DNA of 64,000 bases from Bacillota bacterium (GTDB taxonomy: Bacteria; Bacillota; Sulfobacillia; JBFMBV01), in NCBI GenBank assembly GCA_040755005.1, contig JBFMBV010000007.1:1181-65180 (forward strand). The letters are read 5' to 3'. Both the position numbers and the translations under genes were made by a program. The stretch's first letter is position 1. Every line of letters begins with the position of its first letter. This document shows, one piece after another, positions 50,177 to 60,417 of this stretch. The notes below the pieces were generated by a model. It searched no databases. It had not been told where the DNA came from and saw nothing but the letters and a program-made list of their open reading frames with translations.

Positions 50177-53100
50177 TCATGCAGTGGCCCATTCCGCGGA
50201 CAGTAGCGCCGCCTGCTCCAGCACCGTCGCCGTCGCCTTCTCTTGCTTGTCCGGCGGGTAGCCATACTTGCGCAGGATGCGCTTCACTAGCACGCGCAAC
50301 TGGGCGCGGACGTTCTCCCGTAGGGTCCAGTCGATCGTCACGTTCCTCCGTACCGTCTCGACCAGCTCGCGTGCGATCGTGCGGAGCGTGTCGTCGCCTA
50401 GTACCTTCACTGCGCTGTCGTTGGTCTCCAGGGCGTCGTAGAACGCCAACTCGTCTTCGGTGAGCCCCAACACCTCGCCGCGCGCCCGGGCCTCGCGCAT
50501 CTCCCTCGCCAGCGCGATCAGCTCCTCGATCACCTGCGCTGCCTCGATGGCCCGGTTCTGGTAGCGACGGATGGTCTGCTCCAGCATCTCGGCGAACGAT
50601 CTGGCCTGCACTACGTTCTTGCGGCGAAGGGTCGCCAGCTCTCCCTTGAGCAGCTTCTGCAGGAGTTCCACGGCCAGGTTCCGCTGCGGCATCCCGCGCA
50701 CGTCGGCCATAAACTCCTCCGACAGGATGGAGATGTCGGGCTTGTGCAGCCCCGCAGCGGCGAAGATGTCCAGGACCCCTTCCGGGGCGACGGCCCGGGA
50801 GATGATCTGGCGTACCGCGTGGTCCAACTCCGCCTCGGGGCGCGTCTCACCCGGCGCGCGCTTGGCGAGCACCGCCTGCACGGCCTGAAAGAACGCCACG
50901 TCGTCGCGGATGCGCAACGCCTCCGTGTGAGGCACGGCCAGCGCGAAGGCCTGCGAAAGCTCGCGCACCGCTTGGAGGCAACGGTCCTTGCCGTTCCCCT
51001 GTGAAAGGATGTGCTCCTGCGCCGCGGTCAGAAGCGCGAGGCGCTCGGCCGACGCGCCGGTCGCCCACTTCGCCCAGTCAAGGCCCTCCGTGGCGCCGGT
51101 CGGCGTGGTAATCGGCCCGAACAGGCCGCGGCAGACCTCGTGCTTTTCCAGCATCAGCGCCACCGCTTCCTCCTGGTCGAGCGCGGTGCGGCCAGTGCCG
51201 CCGCTTTCGGTGTAGGTGGCCAGCGCGGCCTTGAGCTCCTGCGCGAGACCCAGGTAGTCTACTACCAGGCCGCCGGGCTTGTCCTTGAACACGCGGTTGA
51301 CGCGCGCGATGGCCTGCATCAGCCCGTGCCCGCGCATGGGTTTGTCTACGTACATGGTGTGCAGGCTCGGCGCGTCAAAGCCCGTGAGCCACATGTCGCG
51401 CACCAGCACCAGGTTGAGCGGGTCGGCGGGACTGCGGAAGCGTTTGGCCAGCTTCTCGCGCCGAGGCTTGTTGCGGATGTGCGGTTGCCAGTCCGCGAGG
51501 TCGGAGGCCGAGCCAGTCATCACCACCTTCACCGCCCCCTGCGCGTCGTCTTCAGCAGCCCATGTCGGCCGCAGCTTCACCAACTCGCGATACAACTCCA
51601 CGCAGATGCGCCGACTCATGCAGACGACCATCGCCTTGCCGTCGATGGCCTCGAGCCGCTTCTCGAAGTGCTCCACGATGTCCCGCGCCACCAGTGCCAG
51701 CCGTTTCTCGGCGCCAACCACGGCCTCCAGCTGCGCCCACCTGGTCTTGAGCTTCTCCTTGCGCTCGACCTCCTCACCCTCGGTCGCTTCCTCGAAGTCG
51801 GGGTCGATCTTCGGCCGCTCGGCCTCGTCGAGCGCCAGCTTGGCAAGCCGGCTTTCGTAGTAGATCGGTACTGTCGCGCCGTCTTGGACAGAGCGCTGGA
51901 TGTCGTAGACGCTGATGTAGTCCCCGAACACCTGGCGCGTGTTGGCGTCGGCCAGTTCGATGGGCGTGCCGGTGAAGCCGATAAAAGAGGCGTGCGGCAG
52001 CGCGTCGCGCATGTGACCGGCGAAGCCGTCGGCGAAGTCGTACTGGCTGCGGTGCGCCTCATCGGCGATTACCACAATGTTGCGCCGATCTGAGAGCTTG
52101 GGGTGCCGGTCGCCTTTCTCTTCGGGGAAAAACTTGTGGATCGTGGTGAACACCACGCCGCCCCCCACCACCGAGAGCAGTTCGCGGAGGTGCGCGCGGC
52201 TCTCGGCCTGCACGGGGGGCTGGCGGAGCAGCTCCTGGCAGCGCGAGAACGTGCCGAAAAGCTGGTCGTCGAGGTCGATGCGGTCGGTGAGCACGACCAG
52301 CGTGGGGTTCGCCATCGCCGGCTCGCGGATGATGCGGCCCGCGTAGAACGCCATGGTCAGGCTCTTGCCTGAGCCCTGCGTGTGCCACACCACGCCCACG
52401 CGCCGGTCACCGGGCTTGCCGCCGGGTTTGTGCCCCGCCTCGTAGCGCCCGGCCTCGGCAACGCGGTCAACCCGGGCCAGCTCCGCCGCGCGGAGGGTCT
52501 CGCGCACCGCCACGTGAACCGCGTGGAATTGGTGGTAGCCGGCCATCTTCTTGTCGAGCTGGCCGCTGCCGTCGTCCTCGAAAACGATGAAATCGCGCAC
52601 CAAGTCGAGGAAGCGCCGCTTCTCAAATAGCCCCTCGATGACGACCTGTAACTGCGGCACCGTTTCGGGCGCGAGCATCTCGCCGCCGACGGTGCGCCAC
52701 GGCTTGAACCACTCCCGGCCGGCAGTGAGCGTCCCGACGCGGGCCTCGACGCCGTCGGAGACGACCAGCACCGCGTTCGGCGCAAACAGCGACGGAATCT
52801 CGGCCTTGTAGGTCTGAAGCTGCTGGAAGGCCGTCCAGATGGTCGCGTCTTCGTCCGCCGCGTTCTTGAGCTCGATCACCGCCAGCGGCAGGCCGTTGAC
52901 GAACAGCACCACGTCCGGGCGACGGCTGTGCTTGTTTTCGACCACCGCGAACTGGTTGACGGCGAGCCAATCGTTGTTGCCGGGATCGTCGAAGTCAAGC
53001 ACCTGCGCCTGCGCGCCGCGGATCGCACCGTCCGCCGCGCGATATTCCATGGTTACGCCGTCCACGAGGATAAGATGGAGCGCCCGGTTGCGCTGGATCA

Positions 53101-53350
53101 GGTCCGCCCCTTCGGGCCGCGTGAGCTTGCGGAAGGCGTCGTCCAGCGCTTCGGCCGGAAGGTGCGGGTTGAGGCGGGCGAGCGCATCTCGCAGGCGCTG
53201 GGTAAGCACCACCTCGCCGTAGTCGCGCCGCTCGGCCAAGAGCTGATCCGGCGCGATCTCCGGACCGTGCGCGATGCGCCAGCCCATGGCCTCCAGCCAG
53301 GCCAGCGCGGCTTGCTCGACGACGGATTCGGTGACCCCACGTTCGGTCAT
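50177..53350 (-). CDS. hsdR: Type I restriction endonuclease subunit R
   Basis: [59 protein letters not shown]. Confidence 0.96.
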
Positions 53351-55029
53351 GGTTTCCCCTTGCGGGACTTTGCCTCGGACGCGCTGAGGCCCGTCGCTCC
53401 CGTACCCTTCTTGTTCTTCGGTTTGCTCGCAGTTCCCGCGGATTCGCTCACAGGTGCGAACGCGACTTTGAAGCCCAACTCCTGTAGTAGCTTCGTATGC
53501 TGCATGAGGTTCAACTGACTGAAGAAAGGCAACGCATCCGCCTCCGTGCCGCTCTTCGTGATTACTGCATATACGACCTCCCACTCGCCTGGAGTGGGGC
53601 GAGTAGAATCATCGGGAATCACGCTCTGCCACGTCGCAGTCAGCTTTGCCCGTAAGTTGTTTCGTACGCTTCCGTCACCAAGAAACACTCGTGCCCCAAC
53701 GGTTCCTTGCGAGAAGAGATGACTTAGGGTTGAGGACCGCGACTTCCGTTTCACATGCACAAAACGATTACGGCGTCCGAGCAGGTCGCAGAACTCGATT
53801 TCTGTGGCCGCATCCAGTGGCTTGAATAACTCGCCATCCAAACAGAAATAGTCGCTCACGTGCGCCTCAGCTACACGTCCGTTGTAGTCGCCTTCCTTCT
53901 CCTCTGGACGTGCCGCCGGTAGTGTGCCAAACACAGGGACGTTCCGCACAAACTGCTTGACGGTCTGTGCAAAGCTGGTCTCCACCTGAAACCACTTGCC
54001 TTCAACCAGCACGTGCAGGCTGCCGTCCGTCTCGGTTTCCCAGACGATGCAAGAGAAAAGCGACCACTTATCCTGAAACTGTCCGGACTCGCTATGTCGC
54101 AACGAGACGCGATAGGACTTGATCTTTTCAATCGTCAGGGCAGTGACGTCATCGTTGGCAAGCTGGCTCAGATAGTCGTCGATGTCCAGGTCGTTGTACT
54201 CGTGCCTGCGCGTTCCGGTGATCTGAAAGCAATCGACGTTCTGCCAATCCAGCGGCTCCGGTGCGGCAAGATGGAGCCTCTCGGTCTGCTTGTTGCGAAT
54301 GGCTTCTATGAGTCTGTCGTTAAGCTTGTCCAACAGTCCTTGGTCTCGCACTTCCTGCAGGTTATCGATCCAAGCAAAGTTCGTCTTGTACGTGCTCTCT
54401 TGCGACTTTGCGAGAAGTTGCCTGCACTTATCTTCGAGATCGCGCGCTCTGATTGGAAGGTTTATCGTGACGGCATCGGCGCCAGTCACGCGCTTGGCGA
54501 AGCCCTGATCGGTCGGTTCGCCAGTGATCGCGCGGAGCATGTCCCTAGAAATATCGAGGCCAAACGGCGTCAGGTCTGCGCTTCGGCTTGCCTGCTTTCT
54601 CGTGGACATCGCGAACTCTTCGTAGGTTCGGATGTCCATGCTTCGGAGCTGCTTGTGATCGATCGTGTTTAGTGCCACCTTTAGTCCGAACCCAAGTTCG
54701 TAGCAAGCGGGCTTGAGGAGGTTGCGGCCGTAGCCGAAGGTGATCGCAAAGAGCCGCGCGGCAGCCCTAACGAATAGGACCGCTGCAACCGTGGTCCCCT
54801 TGATGTCCTTCGGACAATGTTCGAGGGCATCGTCGATGAACGAAATCCAAGCGGGCGTTCGACTCCGGGGCATTGCGTGCCAGAACTCACCTGTGAATCC
54901 CGCGTCGTTCTTGAGCTTGACGAGGCTTAAATTCTCAGGGTCTTGAAGCCCCGCCTCGCAGGATTTCACGGAGTCCTTGAGAAGCAGGATCGTGAGCTTG
55001 CGCGTCTTCTCTTTCGCCTCTCTTGCCAT
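53347..55029 (-). CDS. TIGR04141/DUF6119-like sporadically distributed protein (putative nuclease)
   Basis: [52 protein letters not shown]; lower GC; coupled to hsdS and hsdR. Confidence 0.75.
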
Positions 55030-56258
55030 CAGACAGCCCTCGCGATGAACTTCTCGGCATCCCTCACCCGCAACTTCCCAGAGATGAGTTTGGGGAGCAG
55101 CGCATCGCGCAGGGCGGCGAGGGTGCGGGATTCGCGGCGGCACTCAAGTAGCCGGTCTGCCAGAGGGCAGGCAAGTCGCTCGAAGGCGGCATTGATCGCT
55201 GCGGTGGGCATGACGATGGCCATTCCTAGGATGGCGCTTGGCTGCGCTCGCTGGTGGCTCTTCGATGTTCCAGTAACAAGCCCTTCGATGTCCTGCCGAA
55301 AGATAGGCGATCGCATGCCGCAGTACGCGTATGTCCGCCCATACCGTGAACGAGGCGCGAGAACAAGGAACTCCGTAGAGCACACAGCGCGATCACCCGG
55401 CTGGATGTCAACGAGCCATACGCGTTCGATCTCCGGATTGAGCTTGGAGAGCAAGACGACTCTTAGCGGAACTCGGAACTTCAGACTCTTTATGCTCGCG
55501 CCGTGCTCCAACGTCGGCCATTGGCCGTCGTCGAATGCGGGAATGCTGAAGTGTCGAAATACCGCGTCCGGAGAGTCAAGGGGATTCTCGCTGTCGCGCA
55601 AATGCTCGACCACATCGCCGAGCTTCCCCACCTCCCATCCCTCCGGGATCTCGCCGAGTTCGGAGTCGACGAGGCGTGCGGGGAAGAGGTCGGCGAGGGG
55701 CTTGGGGAGGCCGGGGTTACGGCCTTCGGCCTTAGCGCGGACGGGGGCGAAGTCCACGAACCACGACTTGAACAGCGCCCGCGCCATCTCCTCCAGCGTC
55801 TCGCTCATCCGCCGGTTCAACTCGATCTTGTCGTCCAGCGTTCCGAGGATGTGGGCGATGGCGCGCTGTTCCGCTGGCGGGGGAACGAGGACCGGCAGGT
55901 TGTAGAACGCTTCGCGGCTTGTGGAAGGAATCGCCGAGCCGCTGTCCATCCCGTTGATGTCTTGGGTCAGTAGTTCGTAGTAGGCCCAGCGAGCATCGAT
56001 CTCGCTCTTTGGCTCCAGGTAGAAGGCGGTGTCGATCACGAAAAAGGGTGCGGGAGAGTAATGAACGCCCCGATAGGCACCCTTCCGGCCAATGATGACG
56101 CTGGGGTGACAGCATAGTGCTTCGTCATACCAGCCTACGGGGCCATTTGTTCCAAAGACGCGAAACCGACCCTTGCTCTCCGCATAACCTCGCAGCGCCC
56201 GGCCGTACTCAAGGGTTGCGAGGTCTCCCCACGTCAGCTCACGCCACTCACCCGCCAT
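55029..56258 (-). CDS. hsdS: Type I restriction specificity subunit S
   Basis: Two TRDs with conserved PPPAEQRAIAHILGTLDDKIELN, ELGEIPEGW, LAALRDALLPKLISG. Confidence 0.95.
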   Translation of the reverse strand: MAGEWRELTWGDLATLEYGRALRGYAESKGRFRVFGTNGPVGWYDEALCCHPSVIIGRKGAYRGVHYSPAPFFVIDTAFYLEPKSEIDARWAYYELLTQDINGMDSGSAIPSTSREAFYNLPVLVPPPAEQRAIAHILGTLDDKIELNRRMSETLEEMARALFKSWFVDFAPVRAKAEGRNPGLPKPLADLFPARLVDSELGEIPEGWEVGKLGDVVEHLRDSENPLDSPDAVFRHFSIPAFDDGQWPTLEHGASIKSLKFRVPLRVVLLSKLNPEIERVWLVDIQPGDRAVCSTEFLVLAPRSRYGRTYAYCGMRSPIFRQDIEGLVTGTSKSHQRAQPSAILGMAIVMPTAAINAAFERLACPLADRLLECRRESRTLAALRDALLPKLISGKLRVRDAEKFIARAV

Positions 56259-56298
56259 ACCCAAGCTCCTTCGGGTTGGCGGCCTCGGCCCATTGCTT
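56248..56298 (-). repeat. Degenerate copy of the hsdM 3' tail (copy 3), supplying the hsdS RBS/start
   Basis: Reads KQWAEAANPKELGYGG*, compared with hsd[23 protein letters not shown]. Confidence 0.75.
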
Positions 56299-56318
56299 GG
56301 CAGTATTCTCGATGCCCC

Positions 56319-56663
56319 TCACGCCTTCCCCTCCAGTCGCAGCAGGAGTTGCCCGATGCGGGGCCTGAGCGCCATGGCGTCTCGGCTGGCGGCTTCCCAG
56401 ACAATCCCGGTATCGATGTCGAAGTATCCGTGCACCAGCACGTTGCGCATCCCAATGATCTTGGGCCATTCGATCTCCGGCGCCAGCGCACGCACCTCCT
56501 CGGGCAGCCCCCAGGCTGCCTCTCCGATGATTTGAAGGTTGCGGACGAACCAGCCTTGCAACAACTCGTCCTGCTCGAAGGCGGCCTTGCCGCGGTGAAG
56601 ATGGCGCTCGATGGCTGCGATGGCCTCGAGCATGTCACGCAACCGTTCCTTGGGGTCCCTCAT
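56319..56663 (-). CDS. HEPN (DUF86/HepT) ribonuclease toxin
   Basis: IIGEAA, IEWPKIIGMRNVLVHGY (R-x4-H-x-Y). Confidence 0.9.
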   Translation of the reverse strand: MRDPKERLRDMLEAIAAIERHLHRGKAAFEQDELLQGWFVRNLQIIGEAAWGLPEEVRALAPEIEWPKIIGMRNVLVHGYFDIDTGIVWEAASRDAMALRPRIGQLLLRLEGKA

Positions 56664-56950
56664 AACGGCACGGCACCCTGGAGCACTCGGTCGCGGATGC
56701 GCGCCTTGAGCCCTCGCTCGGTCATGACGTCTACGGGACGGCCAAGCAGACGCTCCAACTCGTACTGAAGACCTCCCAGGTCGAAGAGGCTGCGTCCCGG
56801 CTCCATCTCAACCAAGAAATCAACATCGCTCCGGGCGTCGGCTTCCCCGCGCGCGACGGAACCGAAGACCCGCGGGTTGCGCGCGCCGTAGGTTGCGCAA
56901 AGACCCAGGATTTCCTCGCGCTTCTCTTTCAACCGTTCGTCAATAGCCAT
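56660..56950 (-). CDS. Minimal nucleotidyltransferase (MNT/MntA) antitoxin
   Basis: VFGSVARGEA..SDVDFLV, SLFDL, LLGRPVDV. Confidence 0.9.
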   Translation of the reverse strand: MAIDERLKEKREEILGLCATYGARNPRVFGSVARGEADARSDVDFLVEMEPGRSLFDLGGLQYELERLLGRPVDVMTERGLKARIRDRVLQGAVPL

Positions 56951-57001
56951 ACCCCAGCTCCTTTAGGTTGGCGGCGATGGCGGCGTCGAGCCCGCGGCCT
57001 C
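56940..57001 (-). repeat. Degenerate copy of the hsdM 3' tail (copy 2), supplying the MNT RBS/start
   Basis: GAGGCCGCGGGCTCGACGCCGCCATCGCCGCCAACCTAAAGGAGCTGGGGTATGG = (EAA)LDAAIAANLKELGYGY*. Confidence 0.8.
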
Positions 57002-57113
57002 AGTAGATGTGTCTTTGGACACCGTCAATGCGACTTGCACGCGCGCAGACGGGAAGTGCGCGCGCGGTCTTATTTTAAGACCGCGGTCAAACGCAGTAAG
57101 ACTGCGGCTATAT

Positions 57114-58804
57114 TTATAAACGCGGGCCATACCATGCCCCTTTTCGCGTGCCGTGCAACACGATCTTCCCTTCCCGTGTGAACCTGGCCAGGAGTCGCCC
57201 CGCCTGACGGATGCCAAGTTGGCAAAGTTCGGCGGCCTCCGTCCGGGTAATTCGACCGTGTCTTTGCACGAATTGCAGGAGCATCTGCTCCTGCTGCAGC
57301 GGCTCGAAGCCGCGCTGGCGCACGTAGGCGGCCGGCTGCCCCAGGCGGCGATAGGTGGCGGCGGAGAGGTGCCAGGTTCGGCCCTTGCGCTCGCCACGCG
57401 GTTCGACGAGGCCGAGTTCGACCAACCGGTTCAGCATCGCACGTGCCTCGGCATCCGGCTTCTGGGTGAGGCGGGTGGCTTCTTCCGTCGTCAGCCGCCG
57501 ATCGTGCCAGAGCGCGTTCAGGATCAGGAGATCATCCAAGCCGAGGTGGCGCCCGGCTCGGGATTCCTCGGCGAGGAGACGAACGAACTCCAGATTGGCC
57601 TCCCCGCCGGGCAGAACCAGGACGACGCCGGCCTCGTTACTGCGGTCGTAGGAGGGTGCGGGCCGGCCGTTGCGGAGCTGCTCGTAGAAGATCGTGTCGA
57701 TGCCGCGCGCAGTGCGTTCGACGATCCCGGCGCGCTTGAAGGCGTCGGCCAGAAGAGGGTTGCGCGGGCGGGGTGCGGTGACGAAGAGATTGTCCAGCCG
57801 CACGCCTTCGGGAAAGCTGCCCGGGTTGGAGATCTCGAGGCGATCGGCGTGCCATTGGATATGGACGGCACCGAGGCGGGTGTAATCGCGATGGATCAGC
57901 GCGTTGGCCAGGGCCTCGCGGAACGCCGGCGGCGGATGGTCCGGCACGGCTACCCGCAGGAGCCCCACCAGGACCTCCTGTTCGCGGTTGCGGGCGGCAA
58001 AGCGTTGCTCGCACTCCTCCATGACGCGCAAGAGCGGCCAGCGGAAGAACTCGTTGACTTCTACCCTTTGCCCGGCCAGCACCTGAAAAGCGACCTCGTG
58101 CGTAGGCAGAAGTCGCCGGAGCGCGTGCTCCTTGCCGAAGAGAAGCAGGCCCAGGACCCGGACGCTCCGGACCTGGCCGTTGGCTTCCACGGCACCCAGC
58201 GCCTTGGCCAATTCCAGGTCCGGCAGGGTGAGCAATGAGGAATCGCCGCTACGGCGTTCGCGGATGCTGCGGCGGAATCGTTCGAACTCCAGAGGATCTA
58301 GGTCTTCCCATGTGGCATCCGGGAGGACTAACGCGGAGTAATCCTCGGCGCCACGGTCGGCCTGCCGGGCCTGCATTTCGTGGAAAACATCGGCAGGCAG
58401 CAGGGCTTGCCGTCGCCGCCGAGCGCCCGTCGCAGGTACTTGCCGGCCGTCGTGCCCACGGGGGCGGACATCGGCGGAACTTCGATCGCGATAACCTCCC
58501 TCCCCTGCAAGGGGACCAAGGCAATACGCGGGATCAACGACGGTCGGGTGCGATTGGCAATGAGGGCGGCAAGCCGCGGCGAATCGGTCCGGCCGGATTC
58601 ATGTCGTGGACGCGCGCCAGTCACACGGCCGTCGTCTTCCACGCCGACCAGCAGCCAGGCCGGTGAATTCGACGAACGATTCACCAGGCAAGCGATGGCC
58701 TCGACCAACTCGTCGTCCGACAGGGGCTTTTGTTCTTCCCCCTTGAACTCGACGTCGACCGATTCACCTACATCGATCAGGCCCTGAAGCCGCTCAGGCA
58801 TCAT
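57114..58804 (-). pseudogene. AlbA_2/Schlafen-like + HATPase_c_4 + HTH protein split by a frameshift near 58385
   Basis: N-ORF GESVDVEFK..LLVGVEDDG; C-ORF FREALANALIHRDY, LEISNPG, PRNPLLA, VERTARGI, tandem HTHs. Junction ATG TTTT CCACGAAATG needs one more T. Confidence 0.75.
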
Positions 58805-60417
58805 GGCTGCGTCTCCCAGAAGCCAAGTTCCTTCAGATTGGCTTCGATCGCGGCATCGAGCTTCGCGGCCTCGGCCTGCTGCTCGCGCAGCGCAGCGGTG
58901 AGCCGCTTCATCTTCTCCGCGAAGGGTTCACCGTCGTCCTCCTGGGCCTCGGCGCCGACGTAGCGGCCGGGCGTGAGCACATGACCGTGTTTGCGCACTT
59001 CCTCCAGCGTGGTGCTCTTGCAGAAGCCGGGAATGTCCTCATAGGTGGTTCGGCCGTCCACGGCCTCGGGGGGGACGTCCTTCTCGCCACGCCAGAGGTG
59101 ATAAGTGCCGGCGATGCGAGCGATGTCCGCATCGGTGAGTTCGCGATGCGTGCGGTCCACCATGCGGCCCATCTTGCGGGCGTCGATGAAGAGCACCTGC
59201 CCGCGCCGGTCGCGGAACTTCCCGTTCTTCCTGTCCCGCCCCAGAAACCACAGGCACGCCGGGATCTGTGTCGAGTAGAAGAGCTGCCCCGGCAACGCGA
59301 CCATGCAGTCCACGAGGTCAGCCTCGATCAGCTTCTTGCGAATCTCGCCCTCTCCCGACTGATTGGACGACATCGAGCCGTTGGCGAGCACGAATCCGGC
59401 CACGCCCGCGGGCGCGAGGTGGTGCACGATGTGCTGCACCCAGGCGAAGTTGGCGTTGCCGGTCGGCGGTACTCCGTACTGCCAGCGCTTGTCGCCGCGC
59501 AAGCGCTCGCCGCCCCAATCGGAGACGTTGAACGGGGGGTTGGCGAGGATGAAGTCGGCCCTGAGATCGGGGTGGCGGTCGTTGTGGAAGGTGTCGCCGT
59601 GAGCGATCTGGCCATCGATGCCGCGGATGGCAAGATTCATCTTGGCGAGCCGCCAGGTGGTGTAGTTCGACTCCTGGCCGTAGATGGAGATGTCCGCCTG
59701 CGCCTTGCCGCCGTTGCCGTTCCCGTTGGCATGCGCGCGGACAAACTCTACCGACTGCACGAACATGCCCGAGGATCCACAGCAGGGGTCGTACACGCGG
59801 CCGCGGTAAGGCTCCAGCATCTCGACCAGCAGCTTGACGACGCAACGCGGCGTGTAGAACTCGCCGCCCTTCTTGCCCTCAGCGTTGGCGAACTGCGAGA
59901 GGAAGTACTCGTATACGCGGCCGAGCACGTCCTTGGCGCGGCTCGCCTCGTCTCCGACCTTGATGTTGCTGACCAGGTCGATCAACTGGCCGAGGCGCAT
60001 CCTGTCGAGCGTGGGTCGGGCGTAGTCTTTAGGCAGTACGCCCTTGAGGGCCGGGTTGTCGCGCTCGATGCCAGCCATGGCGTCGTCGACGAGTTGGCCG
60101 ATGGTGTTCTGGCGGGCCTGGGCCTTGAGGTGCTGCCAGCGCGCGTCGGGTGGAACCCAGAAGATGGACAGTGCGCGGTACTCATCCGGATCCTCGGGGT
60201 CGGCGCCCTGGCTTTCCTCCGTGATGAGCTTCGCGTGCTGCTCCTCGAAGGCATCGGAGATGTACTTGAGGAAGACCAGGCCGAGGACTACGTGCTTGTA
60301 CTCGGCGGCGTCCATCGAACCGCGTAGGGCGTCGGCCATTTGCCACAGCTGGGACTCGTATCCGACGGTGGCGCCGTTCGTTTCTGGTGCCCTGGTGTGG
60401 TTCTTCCGCTTGGCCAT
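58801..60417 (-). CDS. hsdM: Type I N6-adenine DNA methyltransferase subunit M
   Basis: [42 protein letters not shown]. Confidence 0.97.

Follow-up and report, generated by a model that had tools for sequence, protein, structure and literature searches.

Remnants of the hsdM 3' end separate cargo genes in a type I restriction-modification operon and recur in related loci

Antiphage genes nest within restriction-modification (R-M) operons, PrrC in EcoprrI being an embedded example, and this nesting is now used to discover defense systems. Defense genes embedded in type I R-M operons have been described by Payne et al. under the phrase "guilt by embedding" (2024, bioRxiv 10.1101/2024.01.29.577857), for TgvAB in Vibrio cholerae VPI-2 (PMC11411939), and for DarTG2 in the RptR island (PMC12255303); the available parts of these texts cover what is embedded, not how. 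Within those parts, Payne et al. ascribe embedding just to a "genomic sink" and do not use the word "recombination," and PMC12255303 speaks of a "potential recombination hotspot" between hsdS and hsdR. Here, we analyzed 64,000 nucleotides (nt) from a Bacillota bacterium (NCBI GenBank assembly GCA_040755005.1, contig JBFMBV010000007.1, positions 1,181 to 65,180 of the forward strand), a stretch that we call the window and whose minus strand carries one type I R-M operon with nested cargo. Its order is hsdM, a gene with AlbA_2, HATPase_c_4, and winged helix-turn-helix domains (the AlbA_2 gene), a remnant of the hsdM 3' end (the tail), an MNT-HepT gene pair, a second tail remnant, hsdS, a DUF6119 gene, and hsdR. 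The operon resembles the published cases in that Pfam places hsdM, hsdS, and hsdR on one strand with accessory genes (the AlbA_2 gene, MNT-HepT, and DUF6119) nested among them in the same orientation, and its MNT gene matches PDC-S09, a PADLOC candidate from the screen of Payne et al. Embedding in type I operons is already published, and the duplication of the hsdM tail is a new architectural feature of this known kind of system: the available text of the three sources makes no mention of duplicated hsdM ends, and a full-text literature search, with subscription papers and bioRxiv supplements outside its reach, found nothing on them. Repeated hsdM ends provide a testable footprint of embedding. 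They mark cassette boundaries and explain the translation of inserted genes; they also show that at least some cargo is brought in along with a segment of a foreign hsdM, and a profile of the tail could delimit embedded cassettes automatically and could date and trace exchange between phyla.

Two further known arrangements come close to the one seen here. In EcoKI, the hsdM 3' end overlaps the hsdS start, and the two genes are translationally coupled, according to the accessible text of PMC3510504; in the window, by contrast, the overlap spans 11 nt (ATGGCGGGTGA), and further copies of this junction stand before other genes, a difference that we read from the sequence alone. In phase-variable type I systems, too, a single locus contains repeated segments of type I genes, and these act as recombination substrates in hsdS shuffling (invertons and the pneumococcal tvr locus; PMC6265443 and PMC7672463). 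As far as the available parts of these two sources go, inverted repeats inside hsdS and a site-specific recombinase change specificity there, whereas the window repeats are direct, derive from the end of hsdM, flank unrelated cargo, and are accompanied by no recombinase.

The true 3' end of hsdM (copy 1, 58801..58875) is followed on the minus strand by two degenerate versions of itself, copy 2 at 56940..57001 and copy 3 at 56248..56298, as a first, sequence-only reading of this DNA had noticed. Copy 2 is a noncoding, LGYG-type remnant whose frame is shifted by a gap of 1 nt, and it carries the Shine-Dalgarno (SD) sequence AAGGAG 7 nt before the ATG of the MNT gene (56950); copy 3 carries AAGGAG at the same distance before the ATG of hsdS (56258) and terminates in the canonical ...ELGYGG* with its ATGGCGGGTGA overlap. 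Both remnants stop precisely where the AAGGAG-N7-ATG of the following gene lies, a coincidence with start codons that, like the repeats themselves, is observed directly. Junctions that lack a remnant are ATGA overlaps; at copy 1, the hsdM TGA and the ATG of the AlbA_2 gene overlap in this way at 58804-58801. Copies 1 and 2 are identical at 40 of 50 aligned nt, with one 1-nt gap, and copies 2 and 3 at 27 of 30; a BLAST search of the whole 1.9-Mb genome with copy 2 as the query recovers copy 3 at an E value of ~1e-4. As a control for chance, we computed Smith-Waterman scores against 4254 one-kb chunks of the same genome. The score of copy 1 with copy 2 (28) was equalled by a single unrelated chunk, in which coding sequence on contig C31 happens to match at AAIEAKLKELGI, and was followed by a score of 22, so that this direct match is by itself only modest; the score of copy 2 with copy 3 (24) was equalled by one gapped match on contig C4, and the best other score of copy 3 in the genome was 19.

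We regard as decisive for the reality of the repeats a comparison with a DNA profile of the tail, made from the last 72 nt of hsdM in 78 other loci with the window excluded. The profile matches copy 1 at an E value of 4.9e-19, copy 2 at 3e-9 (5.1e-9 in the survey described below), and copy 3 at 0.058. Copy 3 scores weakly for the sole reason that it has lost 24 internal nt in comparison with remnants of 64 to 69 nt that occupy the same place, after the same HepT gene, in three related loci (L082, L085, and L086). Moreover, an independently assembled contig from a public run covers 56244-58891 at ~97% identity; since it spans the array, the array is not an assembly artifact of this metagenome-assembled genome (MAG), and the observation of the repeats is confirmed.

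The same architecture recurs well beyond the window. We surveyed 219 loci around relatives of the window HsdM (80), MNT (59), and AlbA_2 (80) proteins, together with the window itself (220 loci, 2.24 Mb), and accepted tail-profile matches at an E value of <1e-3, a threshold that remnants under ~40 nt cannot reach. The operon strand carries all 166 matches, with not one on the opposite strand, a strand bias that needs no interpretation to be seen. Full hsdM genes account for 107 matches and partial ones for 27 (some of these cut by the locus end, the genuine ones 21 to 207 codons long), and 32 are short remnants of at most 24 codons. The lengths of remnants vary continuously from ~20 nt to >600 nt, as can be observed directly, and their 5' ends are spread over profile positions 1-34. 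At least two tail copies are present in 32 of the 220 loci; the hsdM set contributes 8 of its 80 loci, the MNT set 7 of 59, and the AlbA_2 set 16 of 80, and the window is the remaining one. The MNT ATG lies inside a tail in 16 of 34 close MNT relatives, with a second copy after HepT in 6, and in 21 of 72 loci, by a scripted criterion, the AlbA_2 relative starts at a tail of the LGFW type through an ATGA overlap; by our count, ~17 have another tail copy directly behind the gene. The recurrence with several cargo families is again plain observation: besides MNT-HepT and AlbA_2, tails flank DUF1016/YhcG (L063 and L082), Fic and ORF6N (L025 and L039), and a four-helix-bundle protein (L073).

Related loci with repeated tails and varied intervening genes therefore exist, and cassettes do stack, as the sequence-only reading had expected. 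A locus from a different MAG (L085) holds four tail copies in the order hsdM, a broken MNT-HepT pair, a second type of MNT-HepT, a tail, MNT-HepT, an LGFW tail with an AlbA_2 fragment, a tail, and hsdS; compared with the window, its cassettes come in a permuted order, and every one of them retains its own upstream tail type. Longer pieces of hsdM are found as well: 3' pseudogene remnants of 60 to 207 codons precede cargo in L096/L147 (the same contig), L083, L084, L179, and L192, and the L096/L147 series reads partial hsdM, MNT, second partial hsdM, and AlbA_2. Tails are absent altogether from 46 of the 80 AlbA_2 loci and 44 of the 59 MNT loci, and AlbA_2 and MNT genes also live outside type I operons. 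One locus (L182:3072-5800) has an AlbA_2-family gene followed by MNT-HepT, in the window order, with no hsdM or tail match, which indicates that the two cassettes can adjoin outside type I operons.

A property of the tail that bears on its repetition is the translation start built into it. Among the 80 relatives of the window hsdM, which share 65-87% protein identity with it and come from many phyla, the commonest gene ending is ...LDAAIAANLKELGYGG*, with the hsdS start ATGGCGGGTGAGTGG (MAGEW) inside it, so that the canonical tail ...LGYGG* overlaps the beginning of hsdS; the SD sequence AAGGAG and the ATG of the downstream gene fall within the last ~20 nt of hsdM (...AAGGAGCTNGGNTATGGCGGGTGA). 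In these loci, hsdS directly follows hsdM in 36, cargo lies between the two in 32, and no hsdS is within reach in 12, and the ATGGCGGGTGA overlap preserved in copy 3 is kept in the 36 direct relatives. With the SD and ATG of hsdS lying inside hsdM, the insertion of a gene that keeps both neighbors working needs this stretch twice, first to complete hsdM and again to begin the following gene. Among the 32 short remnants, 22 hold the start codon of the next gene, an ATG that opens a reading frame of at least 60 codons, at the same position of the tail; two others hold an ATG that opens a short open reading frame (ORF), and the remaining eight hold no ATG. These counts support the proposal that the tail is a portable translation signal. 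In five loci (L089, L098, L100, L108, and L109), the HepT reading frame continues at its C terminus into the final six codons of the tail (...LEELGYGG*), and the overlap with the hsdS start thereby persists in the absence of a separate remnant; as just ...ELGYGG* is fused here, only the last ~20 nt of the tail appear to be indispensable. A candidate cargo protein bearing the HsdM C-terminal peptide (an ORF running into a tail copy in L002) was rejected as a spurious, R/A/P-rich frame of GC-rich DNA.

The remnants of the window resemble foreign tails more than they resemble the resident one. Copy 2 reaches up to 91% identity with functional tails of other loci, against 73% with the resident tail, and 44 of 106 foreign tails are closer to it than the resident is; for copy 3, the corresponding values are up to 96%, 73%, and 41 of 106. 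Between copies 1 and 2, seven of nine differing codons are synonymous, which indicates that the two diverged while both were coding. The foreign character of the window copies is directly observed and bears out the earlier suggestion that the copies stem from different hsdM alleles; judged by these comparisons, the hsdM allele from which the window remnants derive is not the one now resident. Together with the permuted cassette order and the weak coinheritance of hsdM and AlbA_2 described below, the foreign remnant alleles suggest at least some modular exchange.

We consider it probable, though by no means certain, that the extra tails are scars of insertion or hsdM replacement at the hsdM/hsdS junction that selection filters and that have been kept for the translation start of the next gene. 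In such a history, an ancestral operon of the form hsdM (LGYG type), MNT-HepT, remnant, and hsdS, like that of L086, would have gained a foreign hsdM (LGFW type) together with its AlbA_2 gene by recombination anchored in the conserved body of hsdM. The right-hand junction would have come to lie ~52 nt short of the old hsdM stop codon, so that copy 2 stayed behind; later deletions would have shortened the remnants to the indispensable SD and ATG, and cassettes with their own upstream tails would pass among type I loci of many phyla. The long, highly conserved body of hsdM is a more plausible homology anchor than the short tail, and we infer both the order of events and recombination in hsdM as their driver. 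A bolder version, in which the hsdM 3' end is a general docking and exchange module, a copy of which would give any gene acquiring it an SD sequence, a start codon, and homology to every operon of a very widespread and highly conserved hsdM family, so that defense genes could be gained, lost, and reordered across phyla by homologous recombination with no dedicated recombinase, seems to us rather unlikely; if true, it would be the missing mechanism behind "guilt by embedding."

Several results weigh against reading the extra tails as such scars. Of 28 remnants in loci with a full hsdM, 5 (in L009, L073, L070, L157, and L087, at 86-98% identity) are matched best by the tail of their own locus, which ranks in the top tenth for 14; the 5 are more readily explained by in-place duplication or by gene conversion than by import along with a foreign hsdM; by sequence identity, both homemade and foreign remnants exist. 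Mantel tests show weak coinheritance of hsdM with AlbA_2 (r = 0.33, P = 0.026, n = 19) and a correlation of hsdM with MNT (r = 0.56, P = 0.012, n = 10) that resembles the control of MNT against HepT (r = 0.61, P = 0.0005, n = 25); these tests supersede rank correlations of identities to the window (rho = 0.09 for AlbA_2, n = 18, and 0.54 for MNT, n = 10). Such partial linkage of hsdM and cargo implies that exchange is not frequent enough to erase coinheritance. In addition, a remnant (E < 1e-3) precedes hsdS in just 5 of the 32 cargo-bearing loci of the hsdM set, and the insertion and replacement events are known from comparison of loci, none having been observed directly.

Of the other explanations, the one that survives best, although we think it unlikely, holds that the tails are working recombination sites, homologous recombination between which, inside one locus or from locus to locus following gene transfer, adds, deletes, and reorders cassettes as in a recombinase-free analogue of an integron. 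Like an integron, the array is a one-directional stack of promoterless cassettes with a repeated element between them and an order that varies among hosts. Unlike an integron, it has no integrase on its contig, and its repeats are direct coding remnants with neither hairpins nor a fixed boundary; IntI beside the array, attC-type hairpins, and a defined recombination point in the repeat are all lacking. The hsdM tail also supplies an SD sequence and a start codon, which attC, to our knowledge, does not. Tyrosine recombinase domains (PF00589) have four matches in the genome, on contigs C10, C4, C35, and C17, and none on the window contig, C7. The three tails fold no better than shuffled sequences (z = -0.32, +0.94, and -2.31); a conserved RNA hairpin around the SD and ATG, considered on account of the z of -2.3 of copy 3, was rejected when RNAalifold found no pairs in 54 functional tails. 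The sequence-only reading, which had proposed integron-like stacking without an integrase, stands as to the stacking and the missing integrase on this contig and is not supported as to the tail as a recombination site.

Four features would suit tails that serve as recombination sites: across many phyla, cassettes have a tail at either end; their order differs between L085 and the window; the window remnants come from other alleles; and some copies within a locus are 92-98% identical over 62 to 99 nt and could recombine. Set against this, the window copies share exact matches of 9 to 12 nt at the longest, at an overall identity of 73-80%, below the roughly 20 to 30 nt that RecA usually needs; remnant 5' ends are not fixed; the hsdM fragments of 60 to 207 codons suggest that junctions can fall anywhere in hsdM; and hsdM and its cargo are partly coinherited. 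The short tail as a recombination anchor is not borne out, given the unfixed ends, the brevity of the exact matches, and the absence of hairpins. Nor is the excision of cargo, as no excised or direct-junction form is demonstrable in public contigs: two joints that skip the whole array (55865 to 58823 and 56280 to 58946, the intervening sequence not being known) occur in one low-depth contig each of run X3, with short sides of just 27 and 38 letters, and may come from other organisms with the canonical junction. At the window locus, the tail is unlikely to be an active site of recombination or excision.

Quite improbable, in our estimation, is a process in which the cassette is free DNA whose insertion duplicates 50 to 100 nt of the target, for instance by template switching in replication or by staggered repair, leaving tails that are identical at first and later diverge or are converted. 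Near-identical own-allele copies in L009 (94 of 99 nt), L063 (55 of 59), and L073 (62 of 66) speak for it, as do the remnants matched best (5/28) or in the top 10% (14/28) by their own tail. Against it stand the window copies, which lie closer to foreign tails and whose mostly synonymous differences mark them as diverged while coding, and the wide variation in remnant length, and we know of no mechanism with such long target duplications. Finally, chance or convergence, by which strong-SD gene starts would follow alanine-rich, coding-like sequence in a GC-rich genome, can point to the unrelated C31 gene that equals copy 2 against the hsdM tail in the plain Smith-Waterman comparison (28), yet it is already refuted for copy 2 and is exceedingly improbable in general, given a profile E value of 3e-9 for copy 2, values as low as 1e-17 among the remnants of other loci, the lack of any opposite-strand match in 2.24 Mb, and homologous remnants at the same position in related cassettes.

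The remaining parts of the operon, all on the minus strand, are as follows. The methylase gene hsdM (58801..60417) encodes 538 amino acids (aa) with the Pfam domains N6_Mtase (E = 3.4e-106) and HsdM_N (E = 2.5e-28) and is the single hsdM match in its genome (1.9 Mb, 57 contigs). At the other end of the array, hsdS (55029..56258) encodes 409 aa from the ATG at 56258, with the N terminus MAGEW, and matches Methylase_S (E = 1.2e-13) and the PADLOC model Specificity_I (E = 5.8e-81). In contigs of four of four public runs, 372 nt of its first variable region (55872-56243) are skipped, with 55871 joined to 56244, which suggests that related strains carry a different first target recognition domain in hsdS. 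A DUF6119/TIGR04141 gene (53347..55029; E = 3e-154 and 7.4e-148, respectively), of the family named "sporadically distributed," lies between hsdS and hsdR with an ATGA overlap at either side; it has no PADLOC match, and no duplicate of the hsdS end was found at its boundary with hsdR (Smith-Waterman score of 8 for the hsdS end against the pre-hsdR region). The restriction gene hsdR (50177..53350) encodes 1057 aa from the ATG at 53350, with the Pfam domains HSDR_N, SWI2_SNF2, and T1RH-like_C. A sigma-70 promoter scan of 56100-59000 gave 0 sites, the sigma-70 model being uninformative for this organism.

Cassette 2 consists of an MNT-type nucleotidyltransferase gene (56660..56950; NTP_transf_2, E = 2.7e-13; PDC-S09, E = 8.4e-39), whose product is a predicted MntA-like antitoxin, and a gene for a predicted toxin, a HepT-like HEPN RNase (56319..56663; Pfam HepT-like, E = 1.1e-24), which overlaps it by ATGA and whose translation contains RNVLVH, which we take to be the R-x4-H motif. 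The side-by-side NTP_transf_2 and HepT-like genes with their ATGA overlap resemble the type VII toxin-antitoxin system MntA-HepT; they differ from it in scoring below the NCBIfam equivalog cutoff of 60 (38.7 bits for MntA and 44.3 bits for HepT) and in being operon cargo that starts inside an hsdM tail, and their function is a prediction. Where hsdM ends in LGF plus an extension, an MNT domain (Polbeta/NTP_transf_2) and, after it, the Methylase_S domain of hsdS were seen in one uninterrupted ORF (L006:13286-14854, L012:13310-14839, L016:12890-15196, L020:11999-14566, and L021:11987-13702), usually preceded by a HEPN (NTase_sub_bind) gene; these ORFs may be true fusions or missed stop/start overlaps.

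Cassette 1 (57114..58804) is the Schlafen/AlbA_2, HATPase_c_4, and winged-helix gene (Pfam SLFN_AlbA_2, E = 3.6e-13; HATPase_c_4, E = 1.9e-17; HTH_24, E = 4.2e-5). The window sequence lacks one base in a T run (58384-58387), which breaks the gene into ORFs 58804..58328 and 58376..57114; contigs of four of four public runs have five T's where the window has four, with the extra base after 58383, which restores a frame of ~560 codons, and the frameshift is either an assembly homopolymer error or a strain-specific mutation. The 104-nt spacer that follows (57010..57113) folds into three hairpins at the DNA level (z = -4.46; 0 of 200 shuffles were as stable) and contains the palindrome GACCGCGGTC. 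Similar palindromes stand after AlbA_2-family genes elsewhere: perfect palindromes of 12 to 22 nt with a CGCG/GCGCGC core, such as TATGAGCGCGCTCATA, ATAACCGCGCGCGGTTAT, and AAATGCACGCGTGCATTT, lie right after the stop codon in loci between L141 and L220, and palindromes of at least 12 nt occur in 36 of 81 loci compared to 25 of 405 control windows. Their half-sites are often repeated, and they are present also where the AlbA_2 gene lies outside a type I operon. The palindrome sequence varies among loci, as would be expected of candidate operators for the protein's own winged helix.

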